The notes under the pieces are model-generated. The model was not told the DNA's origin and searched no databases. It was given only the letters and a program-made list of their open reading frames with translations. A stretch of DNA of 64,000 nucleotides from a virus, in IMG/VR virus record IMGVR_UViG_3300020048_000023, positions 1 through 64,000 of that record; one strand, written 5' to 3'. Numbering within the stretch: the first letter of the stretch is position 1; every line of letters starts with the position of its first letter. Both the position numbers and the translations under genes were made by a program. Below, in pieces: positions 9,904-51,800 of the stretch.

Positions 9904-9911
9904 CACAATAT

Positions 9912-9990
9912 GCCCTCATATCGGCGGCGCCTTCTAAGCGTTAGTACCGTAACGGATAGGAAGATGTGCGTTCGAATCGCACTGGGGGTA
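9912..9990 (+). tRNA. tRNA-Arg(TCT), rearranged D-arm
   Basis: Acceptor GCCCTCA/TGGGGGT; loop CTTCTAA; T-arm GTGCG-TTCGAAT-CGCAC; no canonical D arm. Confidence 0.65.
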
Positions 9991-9995
9991 CATAT

Positions 9996-10069: not shown

Positions 10070-10076
10070 CTTAAAT

Positions 10077-10155
10077 GCGGGATTAGCCCCCCCAGTCTTC
10101 GGAACTGGCAAGGGTAACGGAGCTGAAAATGTAGGTTCGAATCCTATCTCCCGTA
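10077..10155 (+). tRNA. tRNA-Arg(TCG), rearranged D-arm
   Basis: CCAGT-CTTCGGA-ACTGG arm; T-arm TAGG-TTCGAAT-CCTA; no canonical D arm. Confidence 0.6.
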
Positions 10156-10179
10156 CAAGATATGCAGATGCATATAAAT

Positions 10180-23689: not shown

Positions 23690-25129
23690 ATGTCAAAATT
23701 AAATCCGACCATCAAGCGAGAATCCAAATTCTCAACCCAGCGTTTAGCTGGTGGGTCTGGCGCTTTGGCTGCTAAGCAGGACGCCGAATCCTTGTTACGT
23801 AGGGCTGTTATGGCTTGCCTTTTATGGGAAGACCTGTTCTACAGCTCTGGTACCGATAACTCAGATAACATTGCAAAGTTGATCGCACAGGTTGACCCGC
23901 AGACTGTCGCTGAGATCGCTATTGAGGCTCGCGTTGCCCAGAAATTGAGGCACGTACCTTTGTACATCGCTTCCGAAATGCTCAAGCACCCTAAACATAG
24001 GGAATACGTAGGCGAAGTTCTTCCGCTGGTTATCACACGTGCCGACCAGATCACCGACTTCCTTTCTCTGTACTGGAAGGCTAACGGCAAGAGGAAAGCG
24101 ATTGCCGCACAGGTTAAAAAGGGCTTGGCTGATTCCTTCCATAACTTCAACGAGTACAAGCTCGCTAAGTATGACAGGGATTCCGAAATCAAGTTACGTG
24201 ACGTTATGCGTCTTGTACACCCTAAGCCGAGGAACGCCGCAGAAAGCGAACTGTTCGATAAGGTTATCAAGAGGACTCTGGAAACCCCAGATACTTGGGA
24301 AGTAGCTTTAAGCACAGGACGTGATAAGAAAGCAACTTGGGAACGTCTTATCGTTGAAGGTAAATTGGGTGCGCTTGCGTTCCTGAGGAACCTGAGCAAT
24401 ATGACCAAGGTTGGTGTTGATCACAACATAATCCGTCAGGGTTTTGAATCGATCTACTCAGCAATGTTGCTCCCGTTGAACTTCACCACGGCTGCCGCAC
24501 AGGTACCTGTATTCAAGGCTGATATCGAAAAGATGATGCTGAGGACTTACGCAGGATTACCTAAGCTTACAGGCTACACTATCTTCGTCGTAGACGTATC
24601 GGGTAGTATGAACTCTCGTACCAGCTCAAAGAGCACCGTGAACAGGATTGACGCAGCTTCAGCTATGGCTGTATTAGCAGCAAACCAGTGTGAAAACATT
24701 GATATCTATTGTACAGCAGGTAGTGACAGCTCACGTATCCATCAGACTGCAAAAATCGATTACCCGCAGAAGGGTTTCGGCTTGATCGACCAGATCGCTG
24801 AGTACAAACATATGGGTAAGAAAAGTTTAGGTGGTGGTGGTATCTTCACACGTCAGTGCTTGGAGTTCATCGCTACGCAAACTACAAAAGTGCCTGATAG
24901 GATTATCATCTTCTCAGACTCTCAGGACTGCGATTACCCGCACCTGAGGGTTCCGAAACCGTTCGGTAAGAACAACTACATCGTAGACGTATCGGCTGAA
25001 AAGCACGGCGTAAACTACAAGGGTGTATGGACGGCAGAAATCAGTGGTATGTCGGATCACTTCCTGACCTACATCGCTTCACTGGAAGGGTTGCAAAACA
25101 CTTTCGAAGACGACGATTCACTGCAATAA
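23690..25129 (+). CDS. rsr: Ro60/TROVE RNA-binding protein with vWA domain
   Basis: CLLWEDLFY, LRHVPL, YKLAKY, LRDVMRLVHPKP, PDTWEVALS, LRNL; DVSGSM MIDAS motif. Confidence 0.9.
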   Translation: MSKLNPTIKRESKFSTQRLAGGSGALAAKQDAESLLRRAVMACLLWEDLFYSSGTDNSDNIAKLIAQVDPQTVAEIAIEARVAQKLRHVPLYIASEMLKHPKHREYVGEVLPLVITRADQITDFLSLYWKANGKRKAIAAQVKKGLADSFHNFNEYKLAKYDRDSEIKLRDVMRLVHPKPRNAAESELFDKVIKRTLETPDTWEVALSTGRDKKATWERLIVEGKLGALAFLRNLSNMTKVGVDHNIIRQGFESIYSAMLLPLNFTTAAAQVPVFKADIEKMMLRTYAGLPKLTGYTIFVVDVSGSMNSRTSSKSTVNRIDAASAMAVLAANQCENIDIYCTAGSDSSRIHQTAKIDYPQKGFGLIDQIAEYKHMGKKSLGGGGIFTRQCLEFIATQTTKVPDRIIIFSDSQDCDYPHLRVPKPFGKNNYIVDVSAEKHGVNYKGVWTAEISGMSDHFLTYIASLEGLQNTFEDDDSLQ

Positions 25130-25225
25130 CCCAATCCTGAAAGGGAATAACAATGAAGCCGCTCCATTTCCAAAGTGGTCTTTTTTGCGAAAAGTACCTA
25201 TAAACGGTACTTTTCGCATTTTTAT

Positions 25226-30733: not shown

Positions 30734-31420
30734 ATGAGAGTTATACTACATTTAAGTAAAAACAAAGTACCAATTTCAAACCCACGGAGCCACGCACTAA
30801 GCCGTTTACATAAATGGTTTGGGCGAAATAATGAAATACATAACGAGCAATCATTCTATACTTTTTCCGACATTTGGGGTAAAGATAGTACGTCTAAAGA
30901 TGGCGTATTAGACTTTCCAAATGGCGGAAAATTTGTTTTCAGCTCGAATGATACTGGATTAATAAGTAAAATTCTTTTTGCTATTGATCAGGACTCCGAA
31001 TTTATATTTGGTATGAAGGTAATAGGTAGGGATTACGTTGTATTTGACCCATCTGCTGATTTTGGTGACTACTTTTTGTTTCAATCACCAATACACCTTA
31101 CGCAAAAATCCGCTGAAATCGGTTCAAAAAATAAATCTATAACATTCAAAGATACAAATAGCTCGGATGTTATGACCCATATTATGAAGCTGAAAATGGA
31201 TAAAGCTGGTGTCAATTCAGAAGGTTTTAGCATAGCATTCGATACCAAATCTCCAAGCAAAAGAACTCACGTGTGGAAACATAGTGATAATAAAAAACTG
31301 GTATTAAATTATTGCCCCGTAATCATCAACGGCACTAACGAGCAGAAAATATTCTGTCTTGACGTTGGCGTAGGTAAATCAACAGGTACTGGATTAGGTT
31401 GTATTAAACCCACAAAATAA
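30734..31420 (+). CDS. cas6: CRISPR endoribonuclease Cas6
   Basis: C-terminal GVGKSTGTGLG glycine loop; context. Confidence 0.85.
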   Translation: MRVILHLSKNKVPISNPRSHALSRLHKWFGRNNEIHNEQSFYTFSDIWGKDSTSKDGVLDFPNGGKFVFSSNDTGLISKILFAIDQDSEFIFGMKVIGRDYVVFDPSADFGDYFLFQSPIHLTQKSAEIGSKNKSITFKDTNSSDVMTHIMKLKMDKAGVNSEGFSIAFDTKSPSKRTHVWKHSDNKKLVLNYCPVIINGTNEQKIFCLDVGVGKSTGTGLGCIKPTK

Positions 31421-31426
31421 ATTACT

Positions 31427-31981
31427 ATGTATACGATAAAATATTCTGGCGTTTTTGCGTTTATGGCGCCGTACAGTACTGGCAGGAACACCTATATTAA
31501 AAGCAGGTCTTTCGTTATTCCGTCAACACTCAAAGGTATAGAACGATTTCTATTCCCAGAGCTTTTGAGGGATAAGTCCGTAAAACTGCAAAAAATATCA
31601 CGTTGTAAGTTACAATATGAGAGCATACACAATACTCAGGAAGAAGTAACAAGGTGCTCAGTTAAAAAAAACAAGAACAAAGATATAATACAGGAAAAAT
31701 CGGTCATTACCCGAGGCTTGCTTTATAATGTGTCCTGTTTTATTGCTTTTAAAAACGAGGAAGATGCCAAAAGAGCTTATGCTGAAACAATAAGATTATC
31801 CCGCAAAGAGGATATGTTATTGCCAAAGGAGTTTAATGAATGCAGCGACGAAGAGTTTTCAAATCTGAAAGGTATTGAGTTTGTTGAAACCAACGAAGCA
31901 GACTCACAAGCTATACTGGTAGGAAACAATAGGTACGATGATTACAGTAAAACGTATGGAAGAGTTGTTATCACACGTTAG
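31427..31981 (+). CDS. cas5: Cas5
   Basis: YSGVFAF.P...S..F..PSTL.GI N-terminal motif; context. Confidence 0.7.
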   Translation: MYTIKYSGVFAFMAPYSTGRNTYIKSRSFVIPSTLKGIERFLFPELLRDKSVKLQKISRCKLQYESIHNTQEEVTRCSVKKNKNKDIIQEKSVITRGLLYNVSCFIAFKNEEDAKRAYAETIRLSRKEDMLLPKEFNECSDEEFSNLKGIEFVETNEADSQAILVGNNRYDDYSKTYGRVVITR

Positions 31982-34163
31982 AGCTAAAGGTAGTCCTACT
32001 AATACGTCAGTCTTTCAACATTTGAAAGATACTGCGTATATTATGAACATACTATCACGCCACTTTAAGTTTAATAAGTGGGTGAGTAAAAATGGCGCAT
32101 TATTGCACGACATAGGCAAATGCCACCCAGTATTTCAATCAAGGCTCAGTACACCGTATGACGGCTCCGACCTCTGGATAATACCGTTTAGACACGAAAT
32201 ATCATCCATACTTTTTATCTCGTTATTTAAGCCAAAATACTGGGATATACTTATTGAACTTATTATTGGGCACCATAAATCTGTTTATCTACGGGGCGGA
32301 AATGAAATAGGTAGTAACCATAAGGGGCTACTAACTTTAATAGCCAATAACCCAGACGTATTTGAACGCCACGCTGGAACGGAAGAGGAATGGAATGAGT
32401 GGTCAAAAACAGCTTTATCTATACTTGGCTATCTTAAAATTAAAACTAAGCCTATTAGCTACAGCGAAGCCAGAGCCAACTATGATTACGTTGTATCGTA
32501 TTGTAGAGAAATAAGGAAAACAGGTAAGGGTATATCTAAATGGCGCGGAATACTCAATGCCGCCGACCATATATCATCGCACCTTGATCTATTTAGGGAT
32601 TCATTTGAATCAACTAAAAAAAGTATGTTTGTAAAGCCAGACGTTAGTGTTTATGACAAAATGGCTAATTCCTTATATCCTCTTTCGGTTATAGATATGA
32701 AAAAGGAGAAAAAGCATAAGCATACACTTATTATAGCACCTACTGGGGCTGGTAAAACCCAAGCTCTTCTAAGGTGCGCAACTGGTAGAATATTTTATAT
32801 TCTTCCGTTCCAAGCGGCAATTGACGCTATGTTTAGGCGTTTTAAACACGATCTAACAACAACAAACCCAAACTTGGCTATTTCTATACTTCACTCAAAA
32901 TCGGTACCTATTATAGAAAGAGAGGGTACCGTAGCGGAAGCAGTACTGCGGGATAAAATTGGATGCGGACTGAAAGTAGCAACACCATACCAAATATCAA
33001 AAATACTTGTTGGGTCGTCTGGATTTGAGCAGACCATACTTGATATAAGCGGGCAGGATATAATAATGGATGAAATACACTCCTATAATAGAGAGGCTAA
33101 ATCTTTTATATTAACGCTTATTCGTGTTTTACTGCTATTTAATTGTCGTATACACTTCGGAACCGCCACACTTCCAACGGATTTAAAAAATAAGATCATT
33201 AAAATACTTGGCGGAAAAGATAACGTTGATATAATTGAATTAACGAGCGAGCAGCAAGACACATTTGATAGACATATAATTTATAAAAGAGATAGTTTTA
33301 CTGACTGTCTTCCAACTATAGACGAAGCAGTGGCTAATAAGAAAAAAATCTTGATAGTAGCTAATACTGTAGGCGTTGCCCAAAGAATATATAATGATAT
33401 ACTACAAAGGTATCCACATTATAAGTCGTCGCTACTTCACAGCCGATTCAGACGTAAAGATAGGTCTGTTAAAGAAAACGAATTGTTTGATAATAATGCT
33501 TGGAAGGACGGTGGTATTCTCGTAGCAACACAAGTGGTTGAGGTTAGCCTTGACATTAATTACGATGTATTATTTACCTATTGTGCTCCATTTGACGCAC
33601 TCATACAAAGAGGTGGTCGTATTAATAGAGATAGAAATAGACCCCCAGACCGTATTTGCCCCATATACGTAATAAAGACACGAATGAATCATACTAATCG
33701 GGGTGAAGTTATTAGAACCGAGCTTGGCGGTTATAACGAAGGTATAGTAAATGCCACGTGGAATATTTTAAAAGATGGCGAAATACTAAAAGAATCAAGC
33801 ATACAGGGGATGATTGATGCAATATACCCTAATACAGTGGATGATCAAAACCTTATCACAAACTGTATATTTGACGCAGATGGTAACTGTATTATGCAGA
33901 AGCTAACTAATCAAAAAAACGACATACTCGAACAGATATTCACCCAGTCCAATGATATCTTGATTTTGGAAAGCGACGTGGAAGAATATAGGAGAAATTA
34001 TAAATCCAGAGCCGAACTTGAAATACCAGTGTTCTATCTGTCAAGGCATATAGAGAATGTGCTTATACATAATGAGTTAGGTGAGCTAAAGAAAATGGAC
34101 TGCGGGCTCGAACCGTACATTTTACCCAATGCAAACTACAGCTTTGAACGCGGAATTATTTAA
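31956..34163 (+). CDS. cas3: Cas3 HD nuclease-helicase
   Basis: HL..T, LHDIGK, RHE, HH, AD; APTGAGKT, DEIH, TAT, ATQVVEVSLDI, QRGGRINR. Confidence 0.95.
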   Translation: MEELLSHVRAKGSPTNTSVFQHLKDTAYIMNILSRHFKFNKWVSKNGALLHDIGKCHPVFQSRLSTPYDGSDLWIIPFRHEISSILFISLFKPKYWDILIELIIGHHKSVYLRGGNEIGSNHKGLLTLIANNPDVFERHAGTEEEWNEWSKTALSILGYLKIKTKPISYSEARANYDYVVSYCREIRKTGKGISKWRGILNAADHISSHLDLFRDSFESTKKSMFVKPDVSVYDKMANSLYPLSVIDMKKEKKHKHTLIIAPTGAGKTQALLRCATGRIFYILPFQAAIDAMFRRFKHDLTTTNPNLAISILHSKSVPIIEREGTVAEAVLRDKIGCGLKVATPYQISKILVGSSGFEQTILDISGQDIIMDEIHSYNREAKSFILTLIRVLLLFNCRIHFGTATLPTDLKNKIIKILGGKDNVDIIELTSEQQDTFDRHIIYKRDSFTDCLPTIDEAVANKKKILIVANTVGVAQRIYNDILQRYPHYKSSLLHSRFRRKDRSVKENELFDNNAWKDGGILVATQVVEVSLDINYDVLFTYCAPFDALIQRGGRINRDRNRPPDRICPIYVIKTRMNHTNRGEVIRTELGGYNEGIVNATWNILKDGEILKESSIQGMIDAIYPNTVDDQNLITNCIFDADGNCIMQKLTNQKNDILEQIFTQSNDILILESDVEEYRRNYKSRAELEIPVFYLSRHIENVLIHNELGELKKMDCGLEPYILPNANYSFERGII

Positions 34164-34228
34164 CATCTAAAAATAAATTTGGTAGATTCAAAAATTAGTT
34201 ATATATTTGCCACGTTAATCCAAAACAT

Positions 34229-35566
34229 ATGGAAGCCATAAATTTAGGTAGAATACTTTTACGTCAATACAATAAGGTTAATTCAACGAATTACTCAGCA
34301 AAGGAGTTTTTTGAGAATCATTTTGAAGTGTTCCATAGCCCAAAGTCTGAAAAGAATTTTATAAGCATAACAAATAGCCCATTTCATAATAATGGTGGCA
34401 AAAAACCAAAACCATACGAAAAACGTATGGCTGAATATCTGGAAAAAATAGCGTCTGGTAATAGAACTACTTCAATAGGTCGTGATTTTCCAGCGGAAGG
34501 GGAATCACAAGCGACCAGATCACAGGTTGATATGAGAAACATAGACGCATTAACTACGGAAGATATCTATTTGGCTCAGATTGGTGATAATCTATTTGTT
34601 AACATAGAATCATATTCGGTCGGAATAGGGCACCCAGAAGTGTTGTATGAAATCTACCAAGGGTGGTTGGTATACCGAGATAAAATATTGGATAATACGT
34701 TTTACAATTACAAAGGCAACCAGTGTGATACGTGGAACGGTATATGGTTATTGGCTAATACCGAAGACCAATCAGTTGATATGACCGTAAATGATATAGT
34801 AAACAGCTATACGGCAAAGAAAAAAGATAAAAGCGGCAACGAAAAACCTATTGTTGATGAACATAAGTGTTTAAGGTTTGAATCAGTTCGCTGGCACCAA
34901 TTTTTTATTAACCTCGCGGTAAAGTATGCAGATGAATCATTTAACATTAATGTCAAATTATTTAGTGATACAAATAAAGCGTATGGTGATATTACCGTCG
35001 ACCTTAAAGACCTGCGTTACGTGTACGACTTCCTGAAATTGCATACCGAAATAACTGGTAGTAAAAGAGCGTATATTCAAAAGATATTTGAGTCTTGGGA
35101 TATAAAAAGCTTTCGGTATATACTTGAAGGAGATACCTTGGAAAAACATTGCTTTGAACCAAATAATTTTTATGATATCATTCATAATCTCAAACAAGAT
35201 AAAAAAGTTAAACAGAAAGATATAATTAATCTTAAAAACTACTACTTTATGATACTGAGTACCCCAGAAATAATAGCTACAACCGATAGACTATCAACGC
35301 AGTTAATTAATTTCGCCAAAAGTAAGGCTGGTATGAGAAATAGAATAACTGACGTTGAAAAGTTGGTTAATTCTTGGTCAGTGGCTCACTTTAGTAAGAA
35401 CTTAGCTGAAATGGCTAAAACTTATGAAGATGATTTTACAATCGATATATTGGATAATAACACTATTATACAGCTCAATAAGGACTGCTTCAATGTGTTT
35501 ATATCCCAGCTTAAACTTAAATTCTATTTATCCACCTCTAAATCAAACAAAAATGTTAAATTCTAA
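34229..35566 (+). CDS. cas8: Cas8-like large subunit (type I-B-like)
   Basis: Position between cas3 and cas7; size; GR..L..YN...Y.AK.FF N-terminus. Confidence 0.55.
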   Translation: MEAINLGRILLRQYNKVNSTNYSAKEFFENHFEVFHSPKSEKNFISITNSPFHNNGGKKPKPYEKRMAEYLEKIASGNRTTSIGRDFPAEGESQATRSQVDMRNIDALTTEDIYLAQIGDNLFVNIESYSVGIGHPEVLYEIYQGWLVYRDKILDNTFYNYKGNQCDTWNGIWLLANTEDQSVDMTVNDIVNSYTAKKKDKSGNEKPIVDEHKCLRFESVRWHQFFINLAVKYADESFNINVKLFSDTNKAYGDITVDLKDLRYVYDFLKLHTEITGSKRAYIQKIFESWDIKSFRYILEGDTLEKHCFEPNNFYDIIHNLKQDKKVKQKDIINLKNYYFMILSTPEIIATTDRLSTQLINFAKSKAGMRNRITDVEKLVNSWSVAHFSKNLAEMAKTYEDDFTIDILDNNTIIQLNKDCFNVFISQLKLKFYLSTSKSNKNVKF

Positions 35567-36692
35567 AAGATTAAGAATCAAACAGGTTATTTATTACAAT
35601 AACCCAACCCTATTTTGCGTGGGTAAAGAAGGGCAAAAACGAGTATATGATAAAACATATGGAAAATACCTTGCGTATTCGTCTGGGCAGCAACAAAAAA
35701 CTACCCGCGTAAACGAGGTGTGTGAATTGCTTGGTATACCACTTGCGGATTTTGTGTTTTACTACAATGAAAAGCACAAGCAAGCGTCAAAAGGTATTTC
35801 ACAAGACCCGAGGCACGTAGAGGCTATGACACGTGGGTATATGAATGTAACCACTAATAATATTAAACGGGAAAGTCCACTTAATATTAGTACTATGTTT
35901 CCAATACACCCATTATTGGTTGAATCCATCGATGATTTAATTGCCGTAGGTCACGGGGTAAGGGAAAAAAGTTTTACCCTTATACAGGAAAAGAAAAAGA
36001 CCAAAAAAGCTGGCGAGGATGATGATGAATCAGAAAAATCAGACGGCTCAAAGACAGAAGGTAAGTACGAAGAGGTTCCAAAAACAACCGATGAATACAA
36101 AAAATTTCTCGACGAAATGGCTGATACTCGAAAAAAAGGTATAGAACATAGTTTAGCTGGTGGTAAATTATTAACCCGTGGGGTGTTCGAAAGATATATT
36201 GAAATTGACCTAACCAGATTGTTCGCATTTAACAATGATATCTTACTTCCGAGCAAAGAGATTGCCGCTGAATATATGGACGCGATCATTAAGGACGGGT
36301 GGAAAGAAGTAGACACCAAATTGTATGGTAAAATGTTTATCGTACCAAAGTCAATACGCGATAAATATATCCCTGCAATTGCCGAAGCTCTGGTTATGGC
36401 TCTTCCAAACACTAATCAGTCCAGTTCATACTCAGTAGGCGAAATAGTTGCTACGGCGGTTAGTTATGACGCCTCGGAAAATTCATATGCAATTGTGTGC
36501 GAAGAAAATAATGAAACCGCTAATGTTATATTAGACAAGGATGCTGGTTCCAAATTATTCATCACGCCTATTGCCAAAAGTAGCAGGATATTCGCAGGGT
36601 ACGACCGTGAATCAGCTACCTCAAAGGCTAATAAAGAAGCCATTGCGTATATAACTCAGGAATTGCTAAACTTCGACTACGAGGGTATATAA
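35553..36692 (+). CDS. cas7: Cas7 backbone subunit
   Basis: YSSGQQ.K; RGYM; KRESPL.IS; IDL.RLF; context. Confidence 0.7.
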   Translation: MLNSKRLRIKQVIYYNNPTLFCVGKEGQKRVYDKTYGKYLAYSSGQQQKTTRVNEVCELLGIPLADFVFYYNEKHKQASKGISQDPRHVEAMTRGYMNVTTNNIKRESPLNISTMFPIHPLLVESIDDLIAVGHGVREKSFTLIQEKKKTKKAGEDDDESEKSDGSKTEGKYEEVPKTTDEYKKFLDEMADTRKKGIEHSLAGGKLLTRGVFERYIEIDLTRLFAFNNDILLPSKEIAAEYMDAIIKDGWKEVDTKLYGKMFIVPKSIRDKYIPAIAEALVMALPNTNQSSSYSVGEIVATAVSYDASENSYAIVCEENNETANVILDKDAGSKLFITPIAKSSRIFAGYDRESATSKANKEAIAYITQELLNFDYEGI

Positions 36693-36767
36693 ACGTGAAA
36701 TAAGCCATTTTGTTCTTTGACAAATCTGGTGTAGTAAATTAATGTTTAAGGGGTTACACATAGGTAC

Positions 36768-38025
36768 ACTGTGCGTAACCCCATTCTGTAAGGAAATAAC
36801 AACATAATCGGTACATTTCTCTTAAACAATTGTACTGTGCGTAACCCCATTCTGTAAGGAAATAACAACTAACCATCGGGTTCTCCTTACCGTTCCCAAC
36901 TGTGCGTAACCCCATTCTGTAAGGAAATAGTAATACATATGCGGTTGAGTTTGCATTAGTTTTTATTGCGCATAAACCCATTCTGTAAGGAAATAATAAT
37001 CACTGACCAATTACCAGATCAGTCCAGTTAGAGTAACCCCATTCTGTAAGGAAATAACAACGAGTGATTTAAGGTGCCCGCCTCGAATACGACTGTGTGT
37101 AACCTCATTCTGTAAGGAAATAATAATTATGATAATTGAGCAGAGCCAGAGTCTTATACTGTGTGTAATCCCGTTCTGTAAGGAAATAATAAGTAGTAAA
37201 ATAAATGGCGCAATACCTTAAAAACTGCGCGTAACCCCATTCTGTAAGGAAATAATAATACACAAACGAAGGAGTAACCCATAACGTCAACTGTGTGTAA
37301 CCCTATTCTGTAAGGAAATAACAACATCGAAAAGATCAGGCAAATAGAAGCTTCAATTGTGCATAACCCAATTCTGTAAGGAAATAAAAACTTTTCGAAA
37401 GGGTTAAAGGTGTTGAACTATATGTAACCCTATTCTGTAAGGAAATAACAACTACCGACACCCTCGAACAAAGCTATTACCTACTGTGTGTAACCCTATT
37501 CTGTAAGGAAATAACAACTAATCGAAGTTGAACACATAAGCTCTAAAAACTGTGCATAACCCTATTCTGTAAGGAAATAACAACGACGGAATAATAAACC
37601 TCTGGTTGGAAAAACTGTGTGTAGCCCCATTCTGTAAGGAAATAATAATACATCGCAGGTAATCGCATTGCCAACTGTACGTAACCCTATTCTGTAAGGA
37701 AATAAAAATAGTTGTATTTGCACAGCGCCACAACCAGCAATGTGTGTAGCCCCATTCTGTAAGGAAATAACAATCAGAAACTCATTATGCTATGCTTAGC
37801 TAATATAACCTCATTCTGTAAGGAAATAAAAATAAGGAGCAATTCAAGAAGGTTGACTTAGATACGGTGCGTAACCACATTCTGTAAGGAAATAATAATA
37901 TGTACACCAGTGCAGTATCATCAGTGCACTGCGCATAACCCCATTCTGTAAGGAAATAATAATAATCAACACTTTAACCGAAAGATAAAACCATACATAA
38001 CCCTATTCTGTAAGGAAATTAAAAA
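36768..38025. CRISPR. CRISPR array: 20 degenerate 36-nt repeats (consensus ACTGTGYGTAACCCYATTCTGTAAGGAAATAAYAAY), 19 spacers mostly 29-30 nt
   Basis: Repeats at 36768, 36834, 36899, 36965 ... 37990; core TTCTGTAAGGAAAT invariant. Confidence 0.95.
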
Positions 38026-38050
38026 TAATTTAAAGTTTTTTTCACAAAAG

Positions 38051-38082
38051 CTTGTTTTATTCAAATATTATGTCTACATTTG
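38051..38082 (+). promoter_or_regulatory. Bacteroidota sigma-70 promoter for leader 3
   Basis: (C)TTG-N20-TACATTTG. Confidence 0.7.
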
Positions 38083-38123
38083 CAGCACTTTTTGAAACTA
38101 ACAACTATATATAAGAAAATACA

Positions 38124-38249
38124 ATGAAAAAGATCACCTACATAACCAGTTCCAATAACCTTATTCTGAAAGGAAATAACAATAGTTGTTTGGAAGCATC
38201 GTCAGAGGCGTTAGCCACTACGAATGGAATCGGTATGTACGTGAGGTAA
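38124..38249 (+). CDS. Putative attenuator leader peptide 3 MKKITYITSSNNLILKGNNNSCLEASSEALATTNGIGMYVR
   Basis: Manual translation; S/C/L/E/A core; terminator follows. Confidence 0.8.
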   Translation: MKKITYITSSNNLILKGNNNSCLEASSEALATTNGIGMYVR

Positions 38250-38276
38250 AGAATTTTTGATTACCAGAGCTCGATC

Positions 38277-38305
38277 AGCCCGATTCCAAAAGAGTCGGGT
38301 TTTTT
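38277..38305 (+). terminator. Intrinsic terminator (attenuator 3)
   Basis: AGCCCGATTC-CAAAA-GAGTCGGGTT plus T-tract. Confidence 0.85.
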
Positions 38306-38340
38306 GTTTTTTGTTCTTTGAATGTCTGGAAAAATATTGT

Positions 38341-38481
38341 GTGCGTCGTGGCGGAATTGGTATACGCGCTTGTCAGTGTACCCTACAAGGCAGGAATTGG
38401 GGAAAACAGGTGGACAACGGAAACTGCATTCCGTGGGCTTTATAGATTAAATCCGCGCTGGTTCGAGTCCAGCCGCGCACA
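38341..38481 (+). ncRNA. tRNA-Leu-like RNA with large insertion in the anticodon region
   Basis: GTGCG../..CGCAC ends; TGGCGGAATTGGTATACGC D arm; GCTGGTTCGAGTCCAGC T arm. Confidence 0.55.
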
Positions 38482-38488
38482 CAAACAT

Positions 38489-38564
38489 GGGTCGTTAGCT
38501 TAGTCTGGCTTAAAGCGTCTGCCTTGCAAGCAGAAGAGCAAGGGTTCGAATCCCTTACGATCCA
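38489..38564 (+). tRNA. tRNA-Ala(TGC)
   Basis: Loop CTTGCAA; G3:U70. Confidence 0.85.
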
Positions 38565-38593
38565 CAATACCGTCTGGAAATTCCAGACAAAAT

Positions 38594-38663
38594 GGGTCTG
38601 ATCCCGAAGGTAGGGAGCTTCACTTGCAATGAAGACATTTGGGTTCGATTCCCACAGTATCCA
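38594..38663 (+). tRNA. tRNA-Ala(TGC), divergent
   Basis: CTTCA-CTTGCAA-TGAAG. Confidence 0.6.
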
Positions 38664-38668
38664 CAAAC

Positions 38669-38752
38669 GGTGCGTTATACAAGCGGTTCAAAGTAGGCAG
38701 CCCTTCAAGCTGTCCCTGTAAAGGTTCGTGGGTTCGAATCCCACACGCACTA
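38669..38752 (+). tRNA. tRNA-Glu(TTC) with long variable arm
   Basis: GCAGC-CCTTCAA-GCTGT. Confidence 0.65.
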
Positions 38753-39250
38753 CACTAATAAAAATCGTCTGGAATTTCCAGACAAATTAAAAAAAGAAAG
38801 GAAATATTATGCTAAAAGCACTAAACACGAAAGGATAGAAAACCGAAAAAAAGAGATCGGAAGCCGAGAAGAAAGAAGGCGGCAAAAACACTCTAATAAG
38901 TTCATTGAAATTTTTAACTTTTTCTTACATTCATACCGCAAAGGAATACTGGATTTCTGCGGTATGGAAGTAAAAGTCACGTACAACGTGAACGGTAAAG
39001 ATGGTATGGTGTCTTTCAAAGAATACGAAAACGGTGTTATGAAGCTGTATAATTTAAGCACGCGGCACCCAAATATATTGAAAGGGGTTATTATCGGTAA
39101 AAAAAGCTGGGGTCTTTGGTTACAGGAATGGACTGACGGAATATCTGAGGGGTCATTCACAACCAGAGAAATCATATCTCAGTTCGATGGTATAAAAATA
39201 CCTGAATCGCTAATGACGGACTTTTATAACGTGTTACATAAAAAAATAAT

Positions 39251-39322
39251 GGCGCGTTCGTCTAGGGGTTAGGACGTTTGGTTTTCAGCCAAAAGACAGG
39301 GGTTCGATTCCCCTATGCGCTA
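39251..39322 (+). tRNA. tRNA-Glu(TTC)
   Basis: TTTGG-TTTTCAG-CCAAA. Confidence 0.85.
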
Positions 39323-39359
39323 CCTTGAATAAAATCGTCTGGATATTCCAGACAAAACT

Positions 39360-39447
39360 GGAAGATGAAACTGGCGTGGGCTGGTCGCGGTCTTGAAAAC
39401 CGAGGGGACGGGTAAAACTGTCTGGTAATCGTGCTATCCTTCTTCCG
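39360..39447 (+). tRNA. tRNA-Ser(TGA), 8/4 fold
   Basis: Loop CTTGAAA; 8-bp acceptor; 4-bp T stem; T loop ATCGTGC. Confidence 0.7.
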
Positions 39448-39499
39448 CTTAGCCGAAACAACTGCGAATATATAAATAAGCGGTTGTTTTGGACAAAAT

Positions 39500-39585
39500 G
39501 GGGCTGTGCTGTAACTGGTAGCCAAGACGGACTTAAAATCCGTTGTGCCGTAAGGCACGTGTGGGTTCGAATCCCACCAGCCCTA
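39500..39585 (+). tRNA. tRNA-Leu(TAA)
   Basis: ACGGA-CTTAAAA-TCCGT. Confidence 0.9.
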
Positions 39586-39593
39586 CAATAATT

Positions 39594-39679
39594 GGAAGCG
39601 TGGGAGAGTGGTTTAATCCACCAACTTGGAAAGTTGGCAGCCTCGCAAGGGCTCGTAGATTCGAATTCTACCGTTTCCG
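39594..39679 (+). tRNA. tRNA-Ser(GGA)
   Basis: CCAAC-TTGGAAA-GTTGG. Confidence 0.85.
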
Positions 39680-40363
39680 CTAATAGTTCTTTGACATTTT
39701 TATGTTAATAATATTAATAATAATTTGTAGGTATTTGTTGGCTCTATCTGGTTTAAAGTATTTCAAACCAGAAGCATCAACAATACACATTTCAATACCG
39801 CGTTCGATACACGCTTGAAATTTACGTGTATCGTTATTTTGAATTTGAGATAGTTTATCGGTTCCGTAAATGGGCTCATAATGAAATATACCATTCAATT
39901 CAAAAGCCAGTTTAAGTGACGGTATGTAAATATCCAATTCGGAGTTGATTGCGTCTTTTTTGTTGTAGTGTATTTCTAATAACGGAAATTGAATGGGTAA
40001 TTCCTGTTCCAGATAAATTTCGAGTTTTGAACGCCTGTTACCAGTTGTTTTATGCGTATTGTTATACGTAGCCGCGCAGGATTTAGTGCAGAAATCGTTT
40101 CCTTTAGTTGATTTTTGCTGCGAAAGTAGTTTACTAAAATTTTTACCGCAATTAGCACACGTGGTTTGTTTTCTGGTTCTTTCGTATACACCCCAGCATT
40201 TCATTGAGCAAAAATCACCAATATCTAATTTATTAGGATTAAAAACGTCTTGTATTCTCTTTTTAGTTAAATAAAAAGTTTTTTCACATTGTTTACATTG
40301 GCACGGAAGCTTATCATATGATTTTGCCGTACTAAATTCTAATTCGTTAAATAGCGCTTTCAT
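39680..40363 (-). CDS. Zn-finger plus PD-(D/E)XK/Vsr-like endonuclease (homing-type)
   Basis: CxxC/FCS repeats; ELDIYIP...AFELNG.FHY. Confidence 0.7.
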   Translation of the reverse strand: MKALFNELEFSTAKSYDKLPCQCKQCEKTFYLTKKRIQDVFNPNKLDIGDFCSMKCWGVYERTRKQTTCANCGKNFSKLLSQQKSTKGNDFCTKSCAATYNNTHKTTGNRRSKLEIYLEQELPIQFPLLEIHYNKKDAINSELDIYIPSLKLAFELNGIFHYEPIYGTDKLSQIQNNDTRKFQACIERGIEMCIVDASGLKYFKPDRANKYLQIIINIINIKMSKNY

Positions 40364-40440
40364 TAATTGTTTTATTATAAATAGTCTTTGGCGGAGCAAA
40401 ATTCGTATTTTCGAAAAATAAACTTACCGCTAAATAAATT

Positions 40441-40524
40441 GCCTTAGTGGGGGAATTGGTTATACCCAGCAGTTTCAAAAACTGCCGCGCTTAGCGCATA
40501 CAGATTCGACTTCTGTCTGAGGCA
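40441..40524 (+). tRNA. tRNA-Leu(CAA)
   Basis: GCAGT-TTCAAAA-ACTGC. Confidence 0.85.
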
Positions 40525-40531
40525 CATATAG

Positions 40532-40617
40532 GGAAGGTGAAACCGCCGAGGGGTGGTCGATGCCTGCTAAGCATACGGTACCCGTAAGGGTATGGGAATC
40601 GTGCTCTCCGCCTTCCG
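40532..40617 (+). tRNA. tRNA-Ser(GCT), 8/4 fold
   Basis: Loop CTGCTAA; GGAAGGTG/CGCCTTCC; GGGA-ATCGTGC-TCTC. Confidence 0.75.
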
Positions 40618-40625
40618 CAAAAAAT

Positions 40626-40696
40626 GCCGTCTAAGTCAATTGGGTTGGCGCTGGTCTGCAAAACCAGTTTGGTGAGTCCGATTCTCACAGACGGCT
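40626..40696 (+). tRNA. tRNA-Cys(GCA)
   Basis: CTGGT-CTGCAAA-ACCAG; U73. Confidence 0.75.
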
Positions 40697-40795
40697 CAAA
40701 ATTACCGTTGTAACGGTAACATTTAACAATAAAATTACCTATGGGTAGTTTTAGCTCTAATTCAGAGCTTAATGTTCGCTGTAGCTGGAAATTAC

Positions 40796-41053
40796 TTACT
40801 TTACCTGAGATAGGTAAATAGTGTTATTTGAAAGGTTGACAGTCGTATCATTGTAGGATATGAGCGATACGCGGGCTTGTTTGTTTGGTCGGTATTCAAA
40901 TTTACCGTCCATGTCTGTATATACTGTATTTCCATCCACCTTAACGGCAACGCCGCATAGTGTTTCGTGAGTTATTGCGTCTTTTACCTGATAGGTTTTA
41001 GGTGTGGAGAATAGTTGCAAGATGAATGCGAAAATAACGAATGTCTTTACCAT
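40796..41053 (-). CDS. Small secreted CarboxypepD_reg-like domain protein
   Basis: VKDAITHETL.GV.V...YTDMDGKF...ISY. Confidence 0.6.
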   Translation of the reverse strand: MVKTFVIFAFILQLFSTPKTYQVKDAITHETLCGVAVKVDGNTVYTDMDGKFEYRPNKQARVSLISYNDTTVNLSNNTIYLSQVK

Positions 41054-41139
41054 ACTTAATGTTTTAAAATAAGTATGAGTTGAATTAAAGAAAGTCTAAC
41101 TTACAGATTAAGTTACTGTTACCTACAGGTTAAATAATT

Positions 41140-41224
41140 GGAAGATTGACCGAGTGGAAAGGTACCCGCCTCGAAAGCGGTGGTCGGGGTAATTCCCGCG
41201 CAGTTTCGATCACTGCATCTTCCG
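41140..41224 (+). tRNA. tRNA-Ser(CGA)
   Basis: Loop CTCGAAA; long variable arm; G73. Confidence 0.75.
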
Positions 41225-41281
41225 CAAAATTTTATTTGGTTATTACTATTTTTAGTTTTATATTTGCAAAAAAATATTTAT

Positions 41282-41872
41282 ATGATGGCTCGGGAACCTA
41301 TGAAAACCACTAAAAAGCAAATTGTTGCTTATTGGGTAAATAAAGGTATTGACGAATGTGAGTTAAATTTTGACTGGTCTGAAGCTGATGGTGTGTGCTG
41401 GAATTGCGGGCATTTAACAAAACACGCTCAAAGATGCCATATCATACCTGATATGTTAGGTGGTGAAGATACACCAAGTAATTACGTTTTATTATGTGAA
41501 GAATGTCACGAAGAAGCCCCGAATATAAATAATTCGGAAGCTATGTGGGATTGGATTAAACACAATAAAAACGATTTTGGTATGTATAATACTTATAAAG
41601 CGTTTAAAGCGTTTAAAGCATTTAAAAAACGAAATGGATTTGACTTTTTTGAAAAAGCGATATACATCACAAATTTTGCTGAATTATTTGTTAATGGGTT
41701 TAAAAATATTGGACTGCACGGAGCGAAGCTAACCATTAGTACTTATATATATATGTTTGAAGATATAATAAAAAAAGGTATTTATAGTGATATCCCACAG
41801 AATATTGGTTTTTTTGAAATATCTGATTTAGTAGAAAAGTCAAATTTAGTGAAAAAGGAAGTACCGCAATAA
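41282..41872 (+). CDS. HNH endonuclease
   Basis: CWNC...RCHIIP..LGG.D..SN.VLLCEECH. Confidence 0.8.
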   Translation: MMAREPMKTTKKQIVAYWVNKGIDECELNFDWSEADGVCWNCGHLTKHAQRCHIIPDMLGGEDTPSNYVLLCEECHEEAPNINNSEAMWDWIKHNKNDFGMYNTYKAFKAFKAFKKRNGFDFFEKAIYITNFAELFVNGFKNIGLHGAKLTISTYIYMFEDIIKKGIYSDIPQNIGFFEISDLVEKSNLVKKEVPQ

Positions 41873-45800: not shown

Positions 45801-48800
45801 TTACGTCCTACGAATCTTCCCGTCTTGGCAATTGTATAAATCGTAGGTAATACCCTTCTTACGCAGGGCGTTTCGGACGTCCGTAATATTCTTTTCCTGA
45901 TCATCGTAGAAAGCCACGTAGCGTATGCTCGGGTTTTCTTTTAGTATCTGTAGTATGCGTTCGCCTTTGTTCTGCATCGCATAGGACGCCATATTCAGGG
46001 CGTCAGGGTTTATCCTGTTTAATCTGAGTACCCGTTTAACTTGTCGTTCCAGCGTATCCAGCCTGTTAGTCATAACCACAACCATTGTATCGGATCGGCG
46101 CTGTTCGTCGCGCATTTGGTTGAATACTGGGGCTATAGCTGTAATTTCAAAGACGTTGGTATCTAAGCTTTCAGGCACGCTCCACCAAGCTTTTTCGCTC
46201 GGGAAATCGCCACCTGTTTTTTGTTTGTATTCTTCCCTGCCGAACTCGGGCATAGGGCTATTGATAAGCGTGCTATCCATATCAAACAATACCAATCTCT
46301 TTAGCTGGCTTCTCTGTGCTTCCATAATTGCTTCTTGTAGTTGTTGTTTTGTAAACTTTGTTTTTTTCTCTTCCGCCTGTAGTTTAAACATTTGCTTTAT
46401 CTGGGCAATTTGCTTGGGATAGAAATATTGCTGCAAGGCGTATTCATCATTATTTTTTACAATATATTCGATGAATTGATCAACGCTCCATTGGCGTTTT
46501 TCGAGCTCTGATTTAAGACGATCCATATTCAGATCGTCATTTGGTTGGAATAACTTGTTGATCTTATCGTAATATTTATCACCCTTACGCACCAAATCTT
46601 TGGTATATTTTTGTAAGAAATCCTTACGGCTCATTCTAACCCATTGACCGCCCCATCTATCGTTTAGAAGTAGTGCTTCATTAACCCAAACGGCGCGTAT
46701 CATATTGGGGTTTAAGTTGCCTATGAATAACGCCTGCTTTTCAGCATTTTGGAATAATGTTTGACCAAGTTCTGGTCTTTGGCTTTGTGATATGGCTGGG
46801 TATGGACTTGCCTGATACCTACCCCTGTTTTGTATGCGTTGTGCTTCGCGTTCTTCATCATTTGAAAAACCACTGGTGTAGTCACCCTGTACAAAATAAG
46901 AGCCACCGCCAGCCCATACTGGTGCTTCAAGGTTTGAAACCTTTGTGGCGAATTCTATGATAATACCTGAGCCAGCAAATTCCTTTTTAACTATGTTAAA
47001 ATCAATACTAACGAATAATCCTTTTGGGTTATTAACATTTTCATAACTATAAATTCTACTAACATTTTCCTGACCAGACAGCCCAAACGTTATCGCTAAC
47101 TTGGCGTCAGTTGTGCTATGCCTGCTAAATCCGTGATATACTATCAGAGTTTCATCGTCGTTTATTGGCTCCATTGATTTAACATCGTAGTTTTTGTAGT
47201 TTTCGTGGCGAACTTCTAATATGGTCTTGGTTATATTTTCTACAATATTTTTGGTATAATTCTTTTTAGATTCATTCCAGTATTCGCTATCGTCATATTG
47301 TTCTGGTTTTTCACCGTACAAGAAAAATCGCTTAATAGCTTCGATTATCATATCTGTTGGTGTATCTTCCTCAAATCTAAGGTAAGTTTGTTCATCACCA
47401 TAAACGTCAATTAGGCTTTCACCTCGTTTTTGCTGAAAAAATCTACGTAGTTGGGTAAATTGGTCTTGCGTCGGCATTGAACGCATTTCTATATTACCAG
47501 ATTCTGGTATAACACGAATGAAGCCCATATCGAGAGCGATATATAACCATTTTGAGAACGAGTTCTCATAAGCCTTTCCGTTATATAACCCCCAATCTAT
47601 TGGTAAATTCTCAATAGTACCCATAATATTCCTATGGTCATTTCCACCAGCGCCGCGTATATTAATGCAATACCCACTTGGTGAAATATACCCACATTGG
47701 GTAACATTTGTTTCGCCGTATTCGGCTAATATAGCTTTCTCTACCTTGAGTATGTCGTAGTCCTTGAACTGCTGCTGTGGCGCTTCGTGGAGTTTTTGCT
47801 CGAATATCTCAGTGCGGGTAAAGTTATTAACGTGATCTTCAAACTCAAATGTTTTACGGTTTATTTCGTTTATGATCGCATCAATGTCTGCTTGCTGGTA
47901 GGTAGACGTTTCGGGAACCATTAGTTCCTTATGGTACGAATACTTATCGTTCAGCATATTGAACGCCGTCTGCATAACAAACCGTTCCATATCAGAGCCA
48001 AACGTGTCGGGTATATCAAAGAAAATCTGGTTTTTCAGTGTGAAGTTATACCATTTCTTTTCGTTGAAGTTTCGGTAGCTCATTTTGAACTCAGACATAA
48101 TAGCCACGTTAGTTAGGGTCACCTGCTGGTTATGCCAATATACATCGGCTTTACCAATTCTCTTACTTAGCTGGAAGTGGTCGTAGTTCTCTTCAGGGAA
48201 TTCGTTATACTTAGCCAGCGACGGTACACGCTGTTTAACCTGTTGTACCAGAGCTTCGAAATTACCATCCAGATTACCCTCGGCTTCATTTAACGACTCA
48301 CGGTTTTTGTAAACTGGGTCAGGAATCCTTTGGTGTATAAATTCGATACTTGGATTCTTTTGTCTGGCTAATGTTAAACCGTTTTTTATTTTAGCAAGCA
48401 TTTCACGCCTACCGTTAATATCAGTATCAAAATTATTGGGGTATAATTCACCTAACTTAAATGCGTCAGTATTGCCAGCCCTTTGAACTGGAATCAACAC
48501 ATCGGGGCTTTTATATATTAGACCGTAATCTGTTGGAAAACGCATATTCAATTTATTGTTCACCCATTGAATTATTTCATTATGAAAATATCCAGTGCCA
48601 TTTATAACATATAAATCACCAGTCTTAGCATCAATAAAACCCCTAATATTTTGTATTAAATTTCTGATTGACTTTGGGTTTTTAAATGCTTCTATAGTTT
48701 CAATATCGTCGCCGTTATTGATATAATTAACTACACCCAAAAAATCTTCACGCAATATTTTAGCCGTAAGCTCTTGTATTTTCTGTGGAGTATTAGTTAT

Positions 48801-51800
48801 TTGGTTAGGGTACCTGTTAGCCATTTTTAATTTAACCTCGCCGTCGTCATCGCGGAATTGATCAAAATATTCGATCTGTTGCTTGGCTTCCGACAGCTTC
48901 CCGTCGATCAAGTTAAAAATTAGTTGCAACGCCACCTTTTGCGCTTCTGTTACCACTGGCTGTATTTCATAGGCGTGGCGCAGGGCTTTTAAATTATCAG
49001 CATTCAATATTTTGAGCGTGCTGTACTTGTCGTCGTAATGCAGTCTATTTTCGTTTCCGAAGGCATTAATAAATGATTCGATTTTATTAATCTTTTCGAA
49101 TATATAATTTCCATCCAAAAATTGGTTATGGTATTTACCCAATTCCCGCAATATGTCGCCAGCGTTTTCAAACCTATATCTCCACTGATTACCACCAGCT
49201 CCATTCCAAGATGTATGTATTATTTTTTCGGCGTGTCTGTCTTGAAATTCGTATACGTCTGGTATATTATTGCTATTTTCTTTGAGTATTTTAACCGCAA
49301 TCTCGCGTATTTTCTGCGGGGTTGACTTGTACTTATCGAAGTTTTGCTGTATGTAGCCCATAACGGCATCACGGGTGTTTTCAAGTTTATCACCGTAGAT
49401 AAGATTCAATAAATCGGTGTTTAGCTGACCGTGCTGACCACCAGTAATACCCATAGCGTCAATTTCGCCCCCTGTAACGGCTAAATCAGCCGCTTTGCGG
49501 GGGTATTTTTCTTCTGGATGCATTGATGCGTCTTTTAGCTTATCTTGCACCACAAAGCTTCCTACGGCTTTTGGATCGATTTTATTGACTGCGTTCATTA
49601 GCCATCTTTCCTCAGCTGGCGTATTGATCTCTTTTCGGGTCAATTCAAAGGCTGTAATAATCTTTGACAGGTTGCCCCAGTTGCCGAAACGTTGAACATA
49701 AAAACTTGACGGCGATTCCTTGGAATCCTTTGTAAGTAGGAAGATAAACTCAGCAAGCGTTTTAACCTTAGGGAACTGTTCGTATGTACCCCTAAAATCG
49801 TCGCCGAAAATAGCTCTATATAGCCCAGATGAAACCAACAATTCGGCTGATTGCTTAATGTCGGTTTTGTGAACTATTTTATCAAATTCAATAACGAAAC
49901 GCTCGTCTTTGATATGTTTAATGTCTTCAGCATTTTGCCTGATCATATTCCACGTATTCGGCTCAATGGTAAACCCGAACCGTGCGGCGAACTGTACGGC
50001 ACGCAGCATCCTGAGCGGGTCTTCCGCAAAGGCTTTTGGGCTGACCATTCGTATGATCTTGTTTTTAAGGTCTTCCCGACCGTTAAACGGGTCGTATATC
50101 TGACCGTGTATATCCTTGGCAATAGCGTTGATCGTGAAGTCGCGGCGTTCCAAGTCTTGATTAAGTGTTATACTCGGGTTGGCTGTAACTTCAAATCCGC
50201 CGTACCCCTGACCTACCTTCTTTTCGGTGCGGGCTAATGCTACGTCAATATCTTCTTTATCGCCGAACGGTTTGAACTTGATTACGGCAAAGCTACCGCC
50301 GACAAATCCAGTATCATTCTTTTCGTTCTTGGCTATATTACCAAATTTCGATAATATGTTAATGACAACCTGCGCATCCAAGCCAGCTACCATAATATCC
50401 AAGTCCTTGGAAACTGTGTTTAGGAAGGTATCGCGCACGGCTCCGCCAACCTGATATACCCTACCGCCAGCTTTTTCTATTTCGGTTACGAAAGGTAATT
50501 TTGCTATGTCGGTATGTTCTATCTCTCTAAGGTTTTCATCGCCAGCCCTGTCAGTCCAGCTGTCGTATGTTGCCTGAGCGCTCCCCACGTTGTATGGGAA
50601 GGTACTTACAATTTCTTTAAGTGCTAATTTTTTCACGATATCTTCTGTTACTGAATTTCCGTTGGCAAAGATAAACCATTTTGGTTTATCATACGGAAAT
50701 CTAAAATGATAACTTCCACGGTTTGGTATATCAATGAAAAATTGCGGTGCTGGGTATTTCGCCATAAATGGGTAGTATATTCTAAGTAGAATATTTTTGA
50801 TTCGTTCCTTGTCATTACCTTCAAGACTTAGGTGAGGCCCGCCGCTCAAAAATGCATAACTAAGCCTTATATATCCGTCATTAAATGCGCGTTTATATAG
50901 TTCAGCCAGATACCCATTTGTATCTTTTTCCATTCTTTTTACGTCTATTTTGTAAAGTGGGTCAAACAGGTCAAAGTGCGACCCCACTTTTATAAACTTA
51001 TTATCTGGGGTAATCCAGCAGAAATGCCGTGTTGTTAAATCAGGACTATATTTGTACTCTAATTCTTCTTTAAGTATATTTTCATTTACTTGTTGAACCT
51101 TATTTAAAAAATTATCGAGTGCTTCGACGTATTTGCTCGATAATTGATCACGAAATTTATTTAACAGTGCGCTCACATATATTTTTTGGTGTTCTGGCGT
51201 TAAGTTATGTAAACCGTCAACGGATAAAAATAACCTTAATTTAGGGAACTTTAACATATTCATATAATATGTAAATTTTTCTGGCTCTGTTAATGTGCTG
51301 AATAAAATGCGTGGCACGTTTGTAGAATTATTTAAAAAATATGGCTTTAATGACTGCTGTAATGATGGTGATAAACTATCGTATAGTAAATCTATTAATC
51401 TTTGACTATCAATCCTAAATTTGTTATCCAGTTCTATGATAATAGATGGTTTTTCTTTATCCGAAAACATACTAAATATTTGTAGATAGAAATTATTTTG
51501 TTCAGATAAAGCGCCTCTATCAAAAAATTGTTCATTCTGTTTATCAAAAAAGTCCATAATCTTATATAAGACATTTTTTCTATTTTCAAACGGCACAGCA
51601 TTCCACCTACGCGCTAATAACCTTTGTTCTTGGTCATAAGTATTAGAACGGGTGTCCTGATTTATTATTAATTTTTCTAATATTTTTTCTTTATCTTGGT
51701 CGTTCAGCAAACTAAATAATTTATCATTTTCTAAATGTTTGCGCTCAAACCCCATAAAAAATATTATTTCGTTAGAACTCAGAAATTCCAGTTCATTTGG

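Follow-up and report, generated by a model that had tools for sequence, protein, structure and literature searches.

The virus record IMGVR_UViG_3300020048_000023 of IMG/VR comprises 160,910 bp (the whole genome, G000), and the analysis presented here concerns its initial 64 kb (positions 1 to 64,000, called the window), in which a block of eleven transfer RNA (tRNA) genes is preceded by a short leader open reading frame (ORF) and an intrinsic terminator. This unit, one of three paralogous cassettes in the phage genome and called cassette 3 below, is probably a kinetic, ribosome-mediated leader-peptide attenuator that would gate a phage tRNA operon and exert feedback on the operon's own tRNA species, by analogy with the attenuators of amino-acid operons. 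The original prediction, made from the sequence alone, had proposed such an attenuator, and the proposal is supported, as all of its sequence-testable features were found and the architecture recurs in the paralogues and in seven related phages. The parts of the unit are (window coordinates):

38051-38082, plus strand: Bacteroidota-type promoter (-33-like CTTG, 20-nt spacer, -7 box TACATTTG)
38104-38114, plus strand: ACTATATATAA motif in the 5′ untranslated region, common to all three cassettes of this genome
38124-38249, plus strand: leader ORF of 41 codons, with an in-frame TAA 12 nt upstream of its ATG
38134-38154, plus strand: region 1, the 5′ strand of the anti-antiterminator helix, which includes the Ser codons AGT TCC (38148-38153)
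38154-38183, plus strand: in-frame insertion of 30 nt (10 codons), a copy of the core of the repeat of a clustered regularly interspaced short palindromic repeats (CRISPR) array
38184-38216, plus strand: regulatory run of eleven Ser, Cys, Leu, Glu and Ala (S/C/L/E/A) codons, codons 21-31 of the leader
38225-38244, plus strand: region 2, which pairs with region 1 over its whole length and with the terminator 5′ arm through 38225-38233
38277-38305, plus strand: intrinsic terminator (10-bp stem, 5-nt loop, T tract)
38313-38321, plus strand: boxA-like element GTTCTTTGA, downstream of the terminator
41235-41266: next promoter, after tRNA-Ser (CGA)

The TAA that lies in frame 5′ of the ATG makes an earlier start of the leader impossible, and the resulting short, apparently translatable ORF stands directly 5′ of the controlled genes on the same predicted transcript. 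The eleven consecutive codons noticed in the original prediction are real (AGT TGT TTG GAA GCA TCG TCA GAG GCG TTA GCC), and so is the earlier TCC, which belongs to the AGT TCC pair of codons 9-10. The regulatory codons are thus clustered and cognate to the controlled product: under strict wobble rules ten of the eleven run codons (the exception being GCC) are read by downstream tRNAs, at least ten cognate codons in a row were met with in none of 20,000 coding windows drawn at random from this genome, and the leader covers all nine anticodons of the array (P = 0.011), each of which has its cognate leader codon. No match to the codon-degenerate pattern of the run was returned from metagenome and viral contigs. 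The genes that follow the terminator are:

38339-38480, plus strand: tRNA-like gene with acceptor and T arms and a ~67-nt insertion (fold)
38489-38565, plus strand: tRNA-Ala (UGC) (ARAGORN, Rfam)
38594-38662, plus strand: divergent tRNA-Ala (UGC) (ARAGORN -ps; Rfam 36.9 bits)
38669-38753, plus strand: 85-nt tRNA with anticodon UUC, an extra arm and C33, called Glu (ARAGORN, fold)
39251-39324, plus strand: tRNA-Glu (UUC)
39360-39446, plus strand: Sec-like class II tRNA with anticodon UGA (Ser UCA) (Rfam tRNA-Sec 29.5 bits, sub-gathering; fold)
39500-39586, plus strand: tRNA-Leu (UAA)
39594-39680, plus strand: tRNA-Ser (GGA)
40441-40525, plus strand: tRNA-Leu (CAA) (ARAGORN)
40532-40618, plus strand: paralogue of the 39360 gene, anticodon GCU (Ser AGY) (fold and paralogy only)
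40626-40697, plus strand: tRNA-Cys (GCA)
41140-41225, plus strand: tRNA-Ser (CGA), the final gene before the next promoter (ARAGORN)

The set called by ARAGORN consists of Ala-UGC (twice), Glu-UUC (twice), Leu-UAA, Ser-GGA, Leu-CAA, Cys-GCA and Ser-CGA. The two genes that it missed fold as class II cloverleaves with the anticodon loops CU-UGA-AA and CU-GCU-AA; the first of them (39360) is matched over its full length by the tRNA-Sec model, with a score under the gathering score, and the second (40532) is identical to the first at 60 of 87 positions, an Rfam search of 40505-40630 having given no tRNA match. Both genes are Sec-like, carry anticodons for Ser and have an unusual T loop. Near-identical palindromic hairpins of the GTCTGGAAATTCCAGAC type are also present between the tRNA genes (38571-38590, 38768-38787 and 39336-39355), where they may serve as processing or protein-binding sites.

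Leader and tRNA block occupy a single promoter-to-promoter interval, as the sole TAnnTTTG -7 box within 36000-41258 is the one at 38075 and the following one (41259) comes right behind the final tRNA gene; the interval 38075-41259 contains the leader and exactly this tRNA block, without an internal promoter. The strict promoter motif is found 73 times on the plus strand of the genome and 4 times on the minus strand, as against 0.7 times in shuffled sequences, which points to a host of Bacteroidota type.

The terminator lies between the leader and the tRNA genes, and an independent terminator scan made its call there as well (38277-38301 plus the T tract). The perfect 9-bp complement that had been reported between leader and terminator is exact: TGGAATCGG (38225-38233) is the reverse complement of CCGATTCCA (38280-38288), with a duplex energy of -14.6 kcal/mol (shuffle P = 0.018). 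Overlooked beside this correct pairing was a strong second helix, in which region 1 pairs with 38225-38244 over ~18 bp in the minimum free energy structure (no ribosome modelled). According to the folding model this helix is a classical 1:2 anti-antiterminator, which leaves the antiterminator a predicted probability of 0.04 when no ribosome is present; the antiterminator itself competes for the terminator 5′ arm, and its predicted probability is 0 with the A site at codons 32-41.

The boxA-like element occurs in 8 copies on the plus strand, compared with an estimate of ~1.2 expected from base frequencies, and 7 of the 8 are in the tRNA/CRISPR region, including one behind each of the three cassette terminators and one ahead of the CRISPR array (36712). 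The phage motif GTTCTTTRA agrees with the boxA core GTTCTTTAAAA that PMC7862264 gives for a natural CRISPR array, a paper in which boxA upstream of CRISPR arrays is attributed to Stringer et al. In cassette 3 this core sequence heads an untranslated transcript, as a putative Nus site.

The three leaders of this genome (9637-9732, 15727-15849 and 38124-38249) are paralogous, and cassettes 1 and 2 share with cassette 3 the ACTATATATWA motif, an ATG-led short ORF, a 3′ part coding for G-x-G, a terminator and the boxA-like motif. The first motif has copies at 9619, 15704 and 38104, in the cassettes, and a fourth at 160003, which was rejected as a cassette. The other two leaders are:

9637-9732: cassette 1 leader, with twelve consecutive R/L/Q codons
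15727-15849: cassette 2 leader, with a Y/W/G/P/T/D core, followed by Tyr, Thr, Asp, Pro, Trp and Gly tRNAs

The cassette 1 leader covers all nine anticodons of its array (Arg CCU, UCU, ACG and UCG; Leu GAG, CAG and UAG; Gln UUG and CUG), two of the Arg tRNAs (UCU and UCG; 9911-9992 and 10076-10160) having been missed by ARAGORN and found by fold only. Relatives were recovered with a conserved 746-aa protein, which led to 20 viral contigs, and with a terminator-plus-boxA pattern, which led to homologous cassettes; seven related phage records were taken whole and 23 further cassettes curated, giving 26 cassettes in eight genomes. Searches of viral contigs with the promoter plus the ACTATATATWA motif gave chance matches only, protein searches with two neighbouring genes returned no relatives, and GenBank phages share only tRNA-sized matches with this phage. 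The 23 related leaders fall into four classes:

P/H/Q, for example PQPQHPQ: ahead of Pro, His and Gln tRNAs
D/E/V/L/A/W: ahead of Asp, Glu, Val, Leu, Ala and Trp tRNAs
K/Y, for example YYYGKKSYKK: ahead of Lys and Tyr tRNAs
C/N/I/S/F/G/T/R: ahead of tRNAs for those amino acids

The codon content of the leader follows the content of the array downstream. Array-cognate codons exceed the genome background in 26 of 26 leaders, the run-length P is <5e-5 for cassettes 1 and 3, and the true pairing of leaders with arrays is the best among all permutations in each of the 8 genomes (product of ranks 2e-8; ~1/144, on top of the run statistics, when restricted to two independent lineages). The tRNAs of this phage are sorted differently from those of its relatives, and its three leaders differ accordingly. 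At the level of single anticodons, the exact Watson-Crick codon is present for 154 of 212 in the leader of the cassette concerned, and C34 isoacceptors go with NNG codons (28/39 versus 22/46; Fisher P = 0.02 on non-independent data). Cassette 3 has the full architecture of the family, that is, promoter, matched leader, mirrored terminator, GTTCTTTRA and tRNAs.

The helix arms co-vary as well. Each of the 25 script-scored cassettes has, within the last third of its leader, a segment that can pair with the 5′ arm of the terminator (shuffle P <0.03 in 23 of them), and changes in the 5′ arm (G/C/A, T/C/A etc. at four aligned positions) are compensated both in the leader partner and in the 3′ arm. 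Pair partners were tabulated with an anchored script, the MAFFT alignment having placed region 2 of cassette 3 out of register; the arm pair GGAATCGG / CCGATTCC is common to cassette 3 and the K/Y class. Cassette 1, with its branched terminator, was treated by hand and shows a weaker antiterminator (-12.6 kcal/mol, shuffle P = 0.11), which behaves alike in the ribosome scan described below.

Some observations on the relatives concern tRNA genes that lie apart from this pattern. Their Leu/Leu/Met clusters follow a gene resembling transfer-messenger RNA (tmRNA), and no leader of their own was found for them; such a tmRNA-like gene ahead of a Leu-UAA/Leu-CAA/Met cluster is seen in relatives including G010 and G015, and a tRNA with a CUA anticodon (amber suppressor) ends the largest array in G008, G020, G014 and G001 (e.g. 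G008:148036). The CUA tRNA together with the tmRNA-like gene hints at TAG recoding. In the whole genome of the phage studied here, no tRNA genes were detected for Lys, Asn, Ile, Met, Val or Phe, whereas related larger phages do have these, behind leaders of their own.

The consequences of ribosome position were modelled by masking a 28-nt ribosome footprint codon by codon on 25 cassettes (24 by batch and cassette 1 separately); the transcripts ended before the terminator 3′ arm because equilibrium folding with the full terminator is uninformative. Under this model, which leaves sterics and kinetics out, the probability of the antiterminator was near 1 in most cassettes with the A site on regulatory codons and was abolished (0) across the final 8-10 codons, and several cassettes were predicted to terminate by default when no ribosome was present. 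A stall that frees region 2 is predicted for cassettes 1 and 2 and for most related cassettes.

Taken together, a mechanism can be proposed in which transcription would begin at the promoter 38051-38082 and a ribosome would translate the 41-codon leader as RNA polymerase heads for the terminator at 38277-38305. Slow decoding of the codons read by the array (Ser four times, Cys, Leu-UUR twice, Glu, Ala) would make the ribosome lag, so that region 2 (38225-38233) could pair with the terminator 5′ arm, no terminator would form and polymerase would read through, the boxA-like element at 38313 probably making it processive across 3 kb of untranslated tRNA genes. With fast decoding, the ribosome would reach the last 8-10 codons and cover region 2, and the terminator would form; it would also form if the leader were not translated at all, with region 2 sequestered by region 1 (38134-38154). 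The supply of precisely the tRNAs of the array would thus come under negative feedback, and one scarce species would suffice to open the gate. In this phage the insertion would have shifted the main run 30 nt from region 1, such that one ribosome stalled on the run would no longer mask region 1. Translation of the leader, the switch and the signal that would throw it are inferred by analogy with known attenuators.

Several findings weigh against this mechanism. With regard to the codons, GCC is an Ala codon that is not strictly decoded by UGC, and the cognate fraction of the whole leader is only 12/40 versus 0.20 expected (binomial P = 0.09); the codon signal of cassette 3 resides in the run and in the coverage of anticodons, not in the composition of the leader as a whole. 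Two of the Ser tRNAs (UGA and GCU) are non-canonical. Neither this nor the status of GCC had been noticed in the original prediction. With regard to folding, the terminator dominates at full equilibrium at nearly every ribosome position, as it likewise does in the trp attenuator, hence the switch must be kinetic. More specifically for cassette 3, the one-ribosome model confines an antiterminator probability near 1 to A-site codons 1-15; on the run (codons 21-31), where region 1 is predicted to re-pair with region 2 behind the ribosome, the probability is close to 0. Finally, the pairings were chosen by an energy model, so that duplex predictions are fitted to the structure being tested, and the related cassettes are homologous, so that they amount to roughly seven independent leader classes rather than 26 independent trials.

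In this model the position of the cassette 3 run outside the permissive window is due to the 30-nt insertion, and both had escaped the original prediction, which gave the run and the earlier TCC correctly and did not see what divides them. The inserted segment (38154-38183) separates codons 9-10 from the main run and is identical to the repeats of the neighbouring CRISPR array at 24-26 of 30 positions and to a solitary repeat copy at 25125 at 26 of 30. Both the insertion and the 25125 copy read TGAAAGG at a place where the array repeats read TGTAAGG, which removes the in-frame TAA of the repeat and keeps the leader open. The CRISPR-Cas locus consists of:

30734-31420: weak Cas6-like ORF
31938-34163: Cas3, with HD and helicase domains
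36766-38035: CRISPR array of twenty 36-nt repeats with spacers of ~30 nt, following the Cas3 gene

Two ORFs of 445 and 422 aa also belong to this locus (window 30734-38035), and the array repeats are unusually heterogeneous in their 5′ third. The solitary copy (window 25125-25217), with its TGAAAGG variant, stands directly after the stop codon of a TROVE/Ro60 gene and is followed by a 16-codon ORF, two hairpins with T runs, and tRNA-Thr genes (CGU and GGU). That region was rejected as a codon-matched leader, since the 16-codon ORF has no Thr codons.

The closest relatives, X7 and X3 (the latter a contig of 9.2 kb at a depth of 72), come from two further freshwater studies and cover this cassette. 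They have 27 net bases fewer than this phage at the cassette, and appear to carry the present sequence minus 38154-38183 plus one TTA codon, which would give a leader of 32 codons with thirteen contiguous S/C/L/E/A codons. Within the run they show a single change, the synonymous TGT>TGC, and many changes in the final codons of the ORF and in the spacer before the terminator; X3 has no CRISPR array upstream. In the tRNA-like gene (38339-38480), the ends are conserved in X3 and the inner part (38421-38456) has 10 changes. Since X3 and X7 lack the repeat copy, the insertion is peculiar to this phage, and the earlier TCC would once have belonged to the run.

It could be argued that the insertion disabled or retuned cassette 3, leaving default termination, a response to the two Ser codons of region 1, or a regulation based on the repeat. 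The placement of run codons 21-31 outside the permissive one-ribosome window speaks for this, as does the reconstructed insertion-free relative, whose contiguous run is predicted to have 7 of its first 8 codons inside that window. However, the insertion keeps the reading frame exactly and does not carry the TAA of the repeat, the run, region 2 and the terminator have remained intact despite it, and the model regains the antiterminator once a second ribosome is queued (only this two-ribosome version does so), which leaves the loss or retuning of the switch an unlikely outcome. The gate of this phage may, on the folding model, be less sensitive than those of its relatives, or a stall on the run may open it only when a second ribosome queues. 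In either case cassette 3 is a natural experiment, with an in-frame insertion between sensor codons and switch and insertion-free relatives for comparison.

Alternatively, the repeat-like unit with the 33 nt that follow it could be a CRISPR-related RNA (a solitary repeat unit, a CreA-like guide or an RNA anti-CRISPR), the codon match being incidental. The unit does lie 120 nt from the end of the twenty-repeat array behind the Cas3 gene, and its sister copy at 25125 is likewise placed ahead of tRNA genes. Nevertheless, this account is highly improbable: no partial match to the 33-nt segment, and no target for it, was found elsewhere in this genome, the unit is missing from the nearest relatives as well as from cassettes 1 and 2 and all related cassettes, and relatives without the repeat or an adjacent array retain run, antiterminator and terminator. 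Scarcely credible, finally, is an ORF that encodes a functional micropeptide or goes untranslated, with the terminator as an ordinary insulator after the CRISPR array, for even though peptide sequences are fairly conserved inside each class of related cassettes, this explains neither a composition that tracks array content over seven classes nor a leader 3′ end that mirrors the terminator arm with compensatory changes.

If the attenuator reading is accepted, the cassettes might further act as an inducible counter-defence, in which the leader would assay the host tRNA pool and the loss of any one of those tRNAs to host anticodon nucleases or host shut-off would turn on the matching phage tRNA block, with RtcB, RNA ligase and Ro60 alongside, and in which the leader repeat could tie the gate to the phage's Cas6/Cascade; this extension is put forward tentatively, as less likely than not. 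The RNA-repair gene set of the genome is:

23690-25129 (window): TROVE/Ro60 with VWA domain
59670-60890 (window): RtcB
70947-72374 (G000): RNA ligase

These genes fit a phage that is invested in tRNA supply. Other features of the region are HNH homing-endonuclease genes scattered among the tRNA blocks (10672-11481, 15937-16713 on the minus strand, and 41282-41872), the second of which lies antisense between the cassette 2 terminator and its tRNAs, and an ORF of 2521 aa on the minus strand (window 45801-53366).

Little is known of how phages regulate the tRNA genes that they carry, and full-text literature searches turned up no publication in which tRNA genes are controlled by a leader peptide. 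If the proposed mechanism is true, tRNA genes placed behind a sensor of the scarcity of their own product would (i) feed back directly, codon by codon, on the translation apparatus, (ii) widen textbook attenuation from amino-acid supply to tRNA supply and (iii) account for the tRNA blocks sorted by amino acid in these phages. The cassettes also offer a bioinformatic marker, as array content is predictable from leader composition, and testable, portable parts in the form of candidate multi-input sensors of decoding speed.

Among known systems, CreT is an RNA toxin encoded beside CRISPR-Cas that sequesters a rare tRNA and is repressed by the CreA guide. Cassette 3 resembles it in that a short, putatively translated RNA, proposed to act in dependence on particular tRNAs, neighbours a CRISPR locus and a degenerate repeat. 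It differs in that a proposed terminator switch precedes tRNA genes and in that the repeat is missing from its relatives. As in the boxA/Nus antitermination of rRNA operons and CRISPR arrays, GTTCTTTRA heads long untranslated transcripts, whereas the phage element is 3′ of a conditional terminator, where only polymerases that have passed the gate would be modified. T-box riboswitches likewise report tRNA status through transcription attenuation for translation-related genes, as is proposed here, but they bind the tRNA directly and need no ribosome; the T-box covariance model gave no match at the gathering score or at E<=1, and no other Rfam leader family matched. The attenuator of Escherichia coli pheST, with its pheM leader, is chromosomal and responds to a single amino acid. 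It is akin to cassette 3 as a leader-peptide attenuator of a translation-apparatus gene, the proposed sensing of cognate aminoacyl-tRNA included, and unlike it in governing a synthetase. The closest parallel is with the leader-peptide attenuators of enterobacterial operons, which are multivalent in ilvGMEDA (Ile/Leu/Val) and thr (Thr/Ile) and are also found in trp, his, leu and pheA. Cassette 3 shares with those of ilv, thr, trp and his a short leader ORF, clustered codons for several amino acids, an intrinsic terminator and the four-region logic of 1:2, 2:3 and 3:4 pairings, in which the position of the ribosome would decide on read-through. The attenuators of amino-acid operons have been the subject of a modelling paper (PMC1183508). 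Cassette 3 and its relatives depart from them in being phage-borne, with Bacteroidota-type promoters and a boxA-like element behind the terminator, in having about one codon per tRNA species for up to eight amino acids, and above all in that the controlled genes are tRNA genes rather than genes for biosynthesis or synthetases, which makes the phage cassette a variant of leader-peptide attenuators rather than a classical member.

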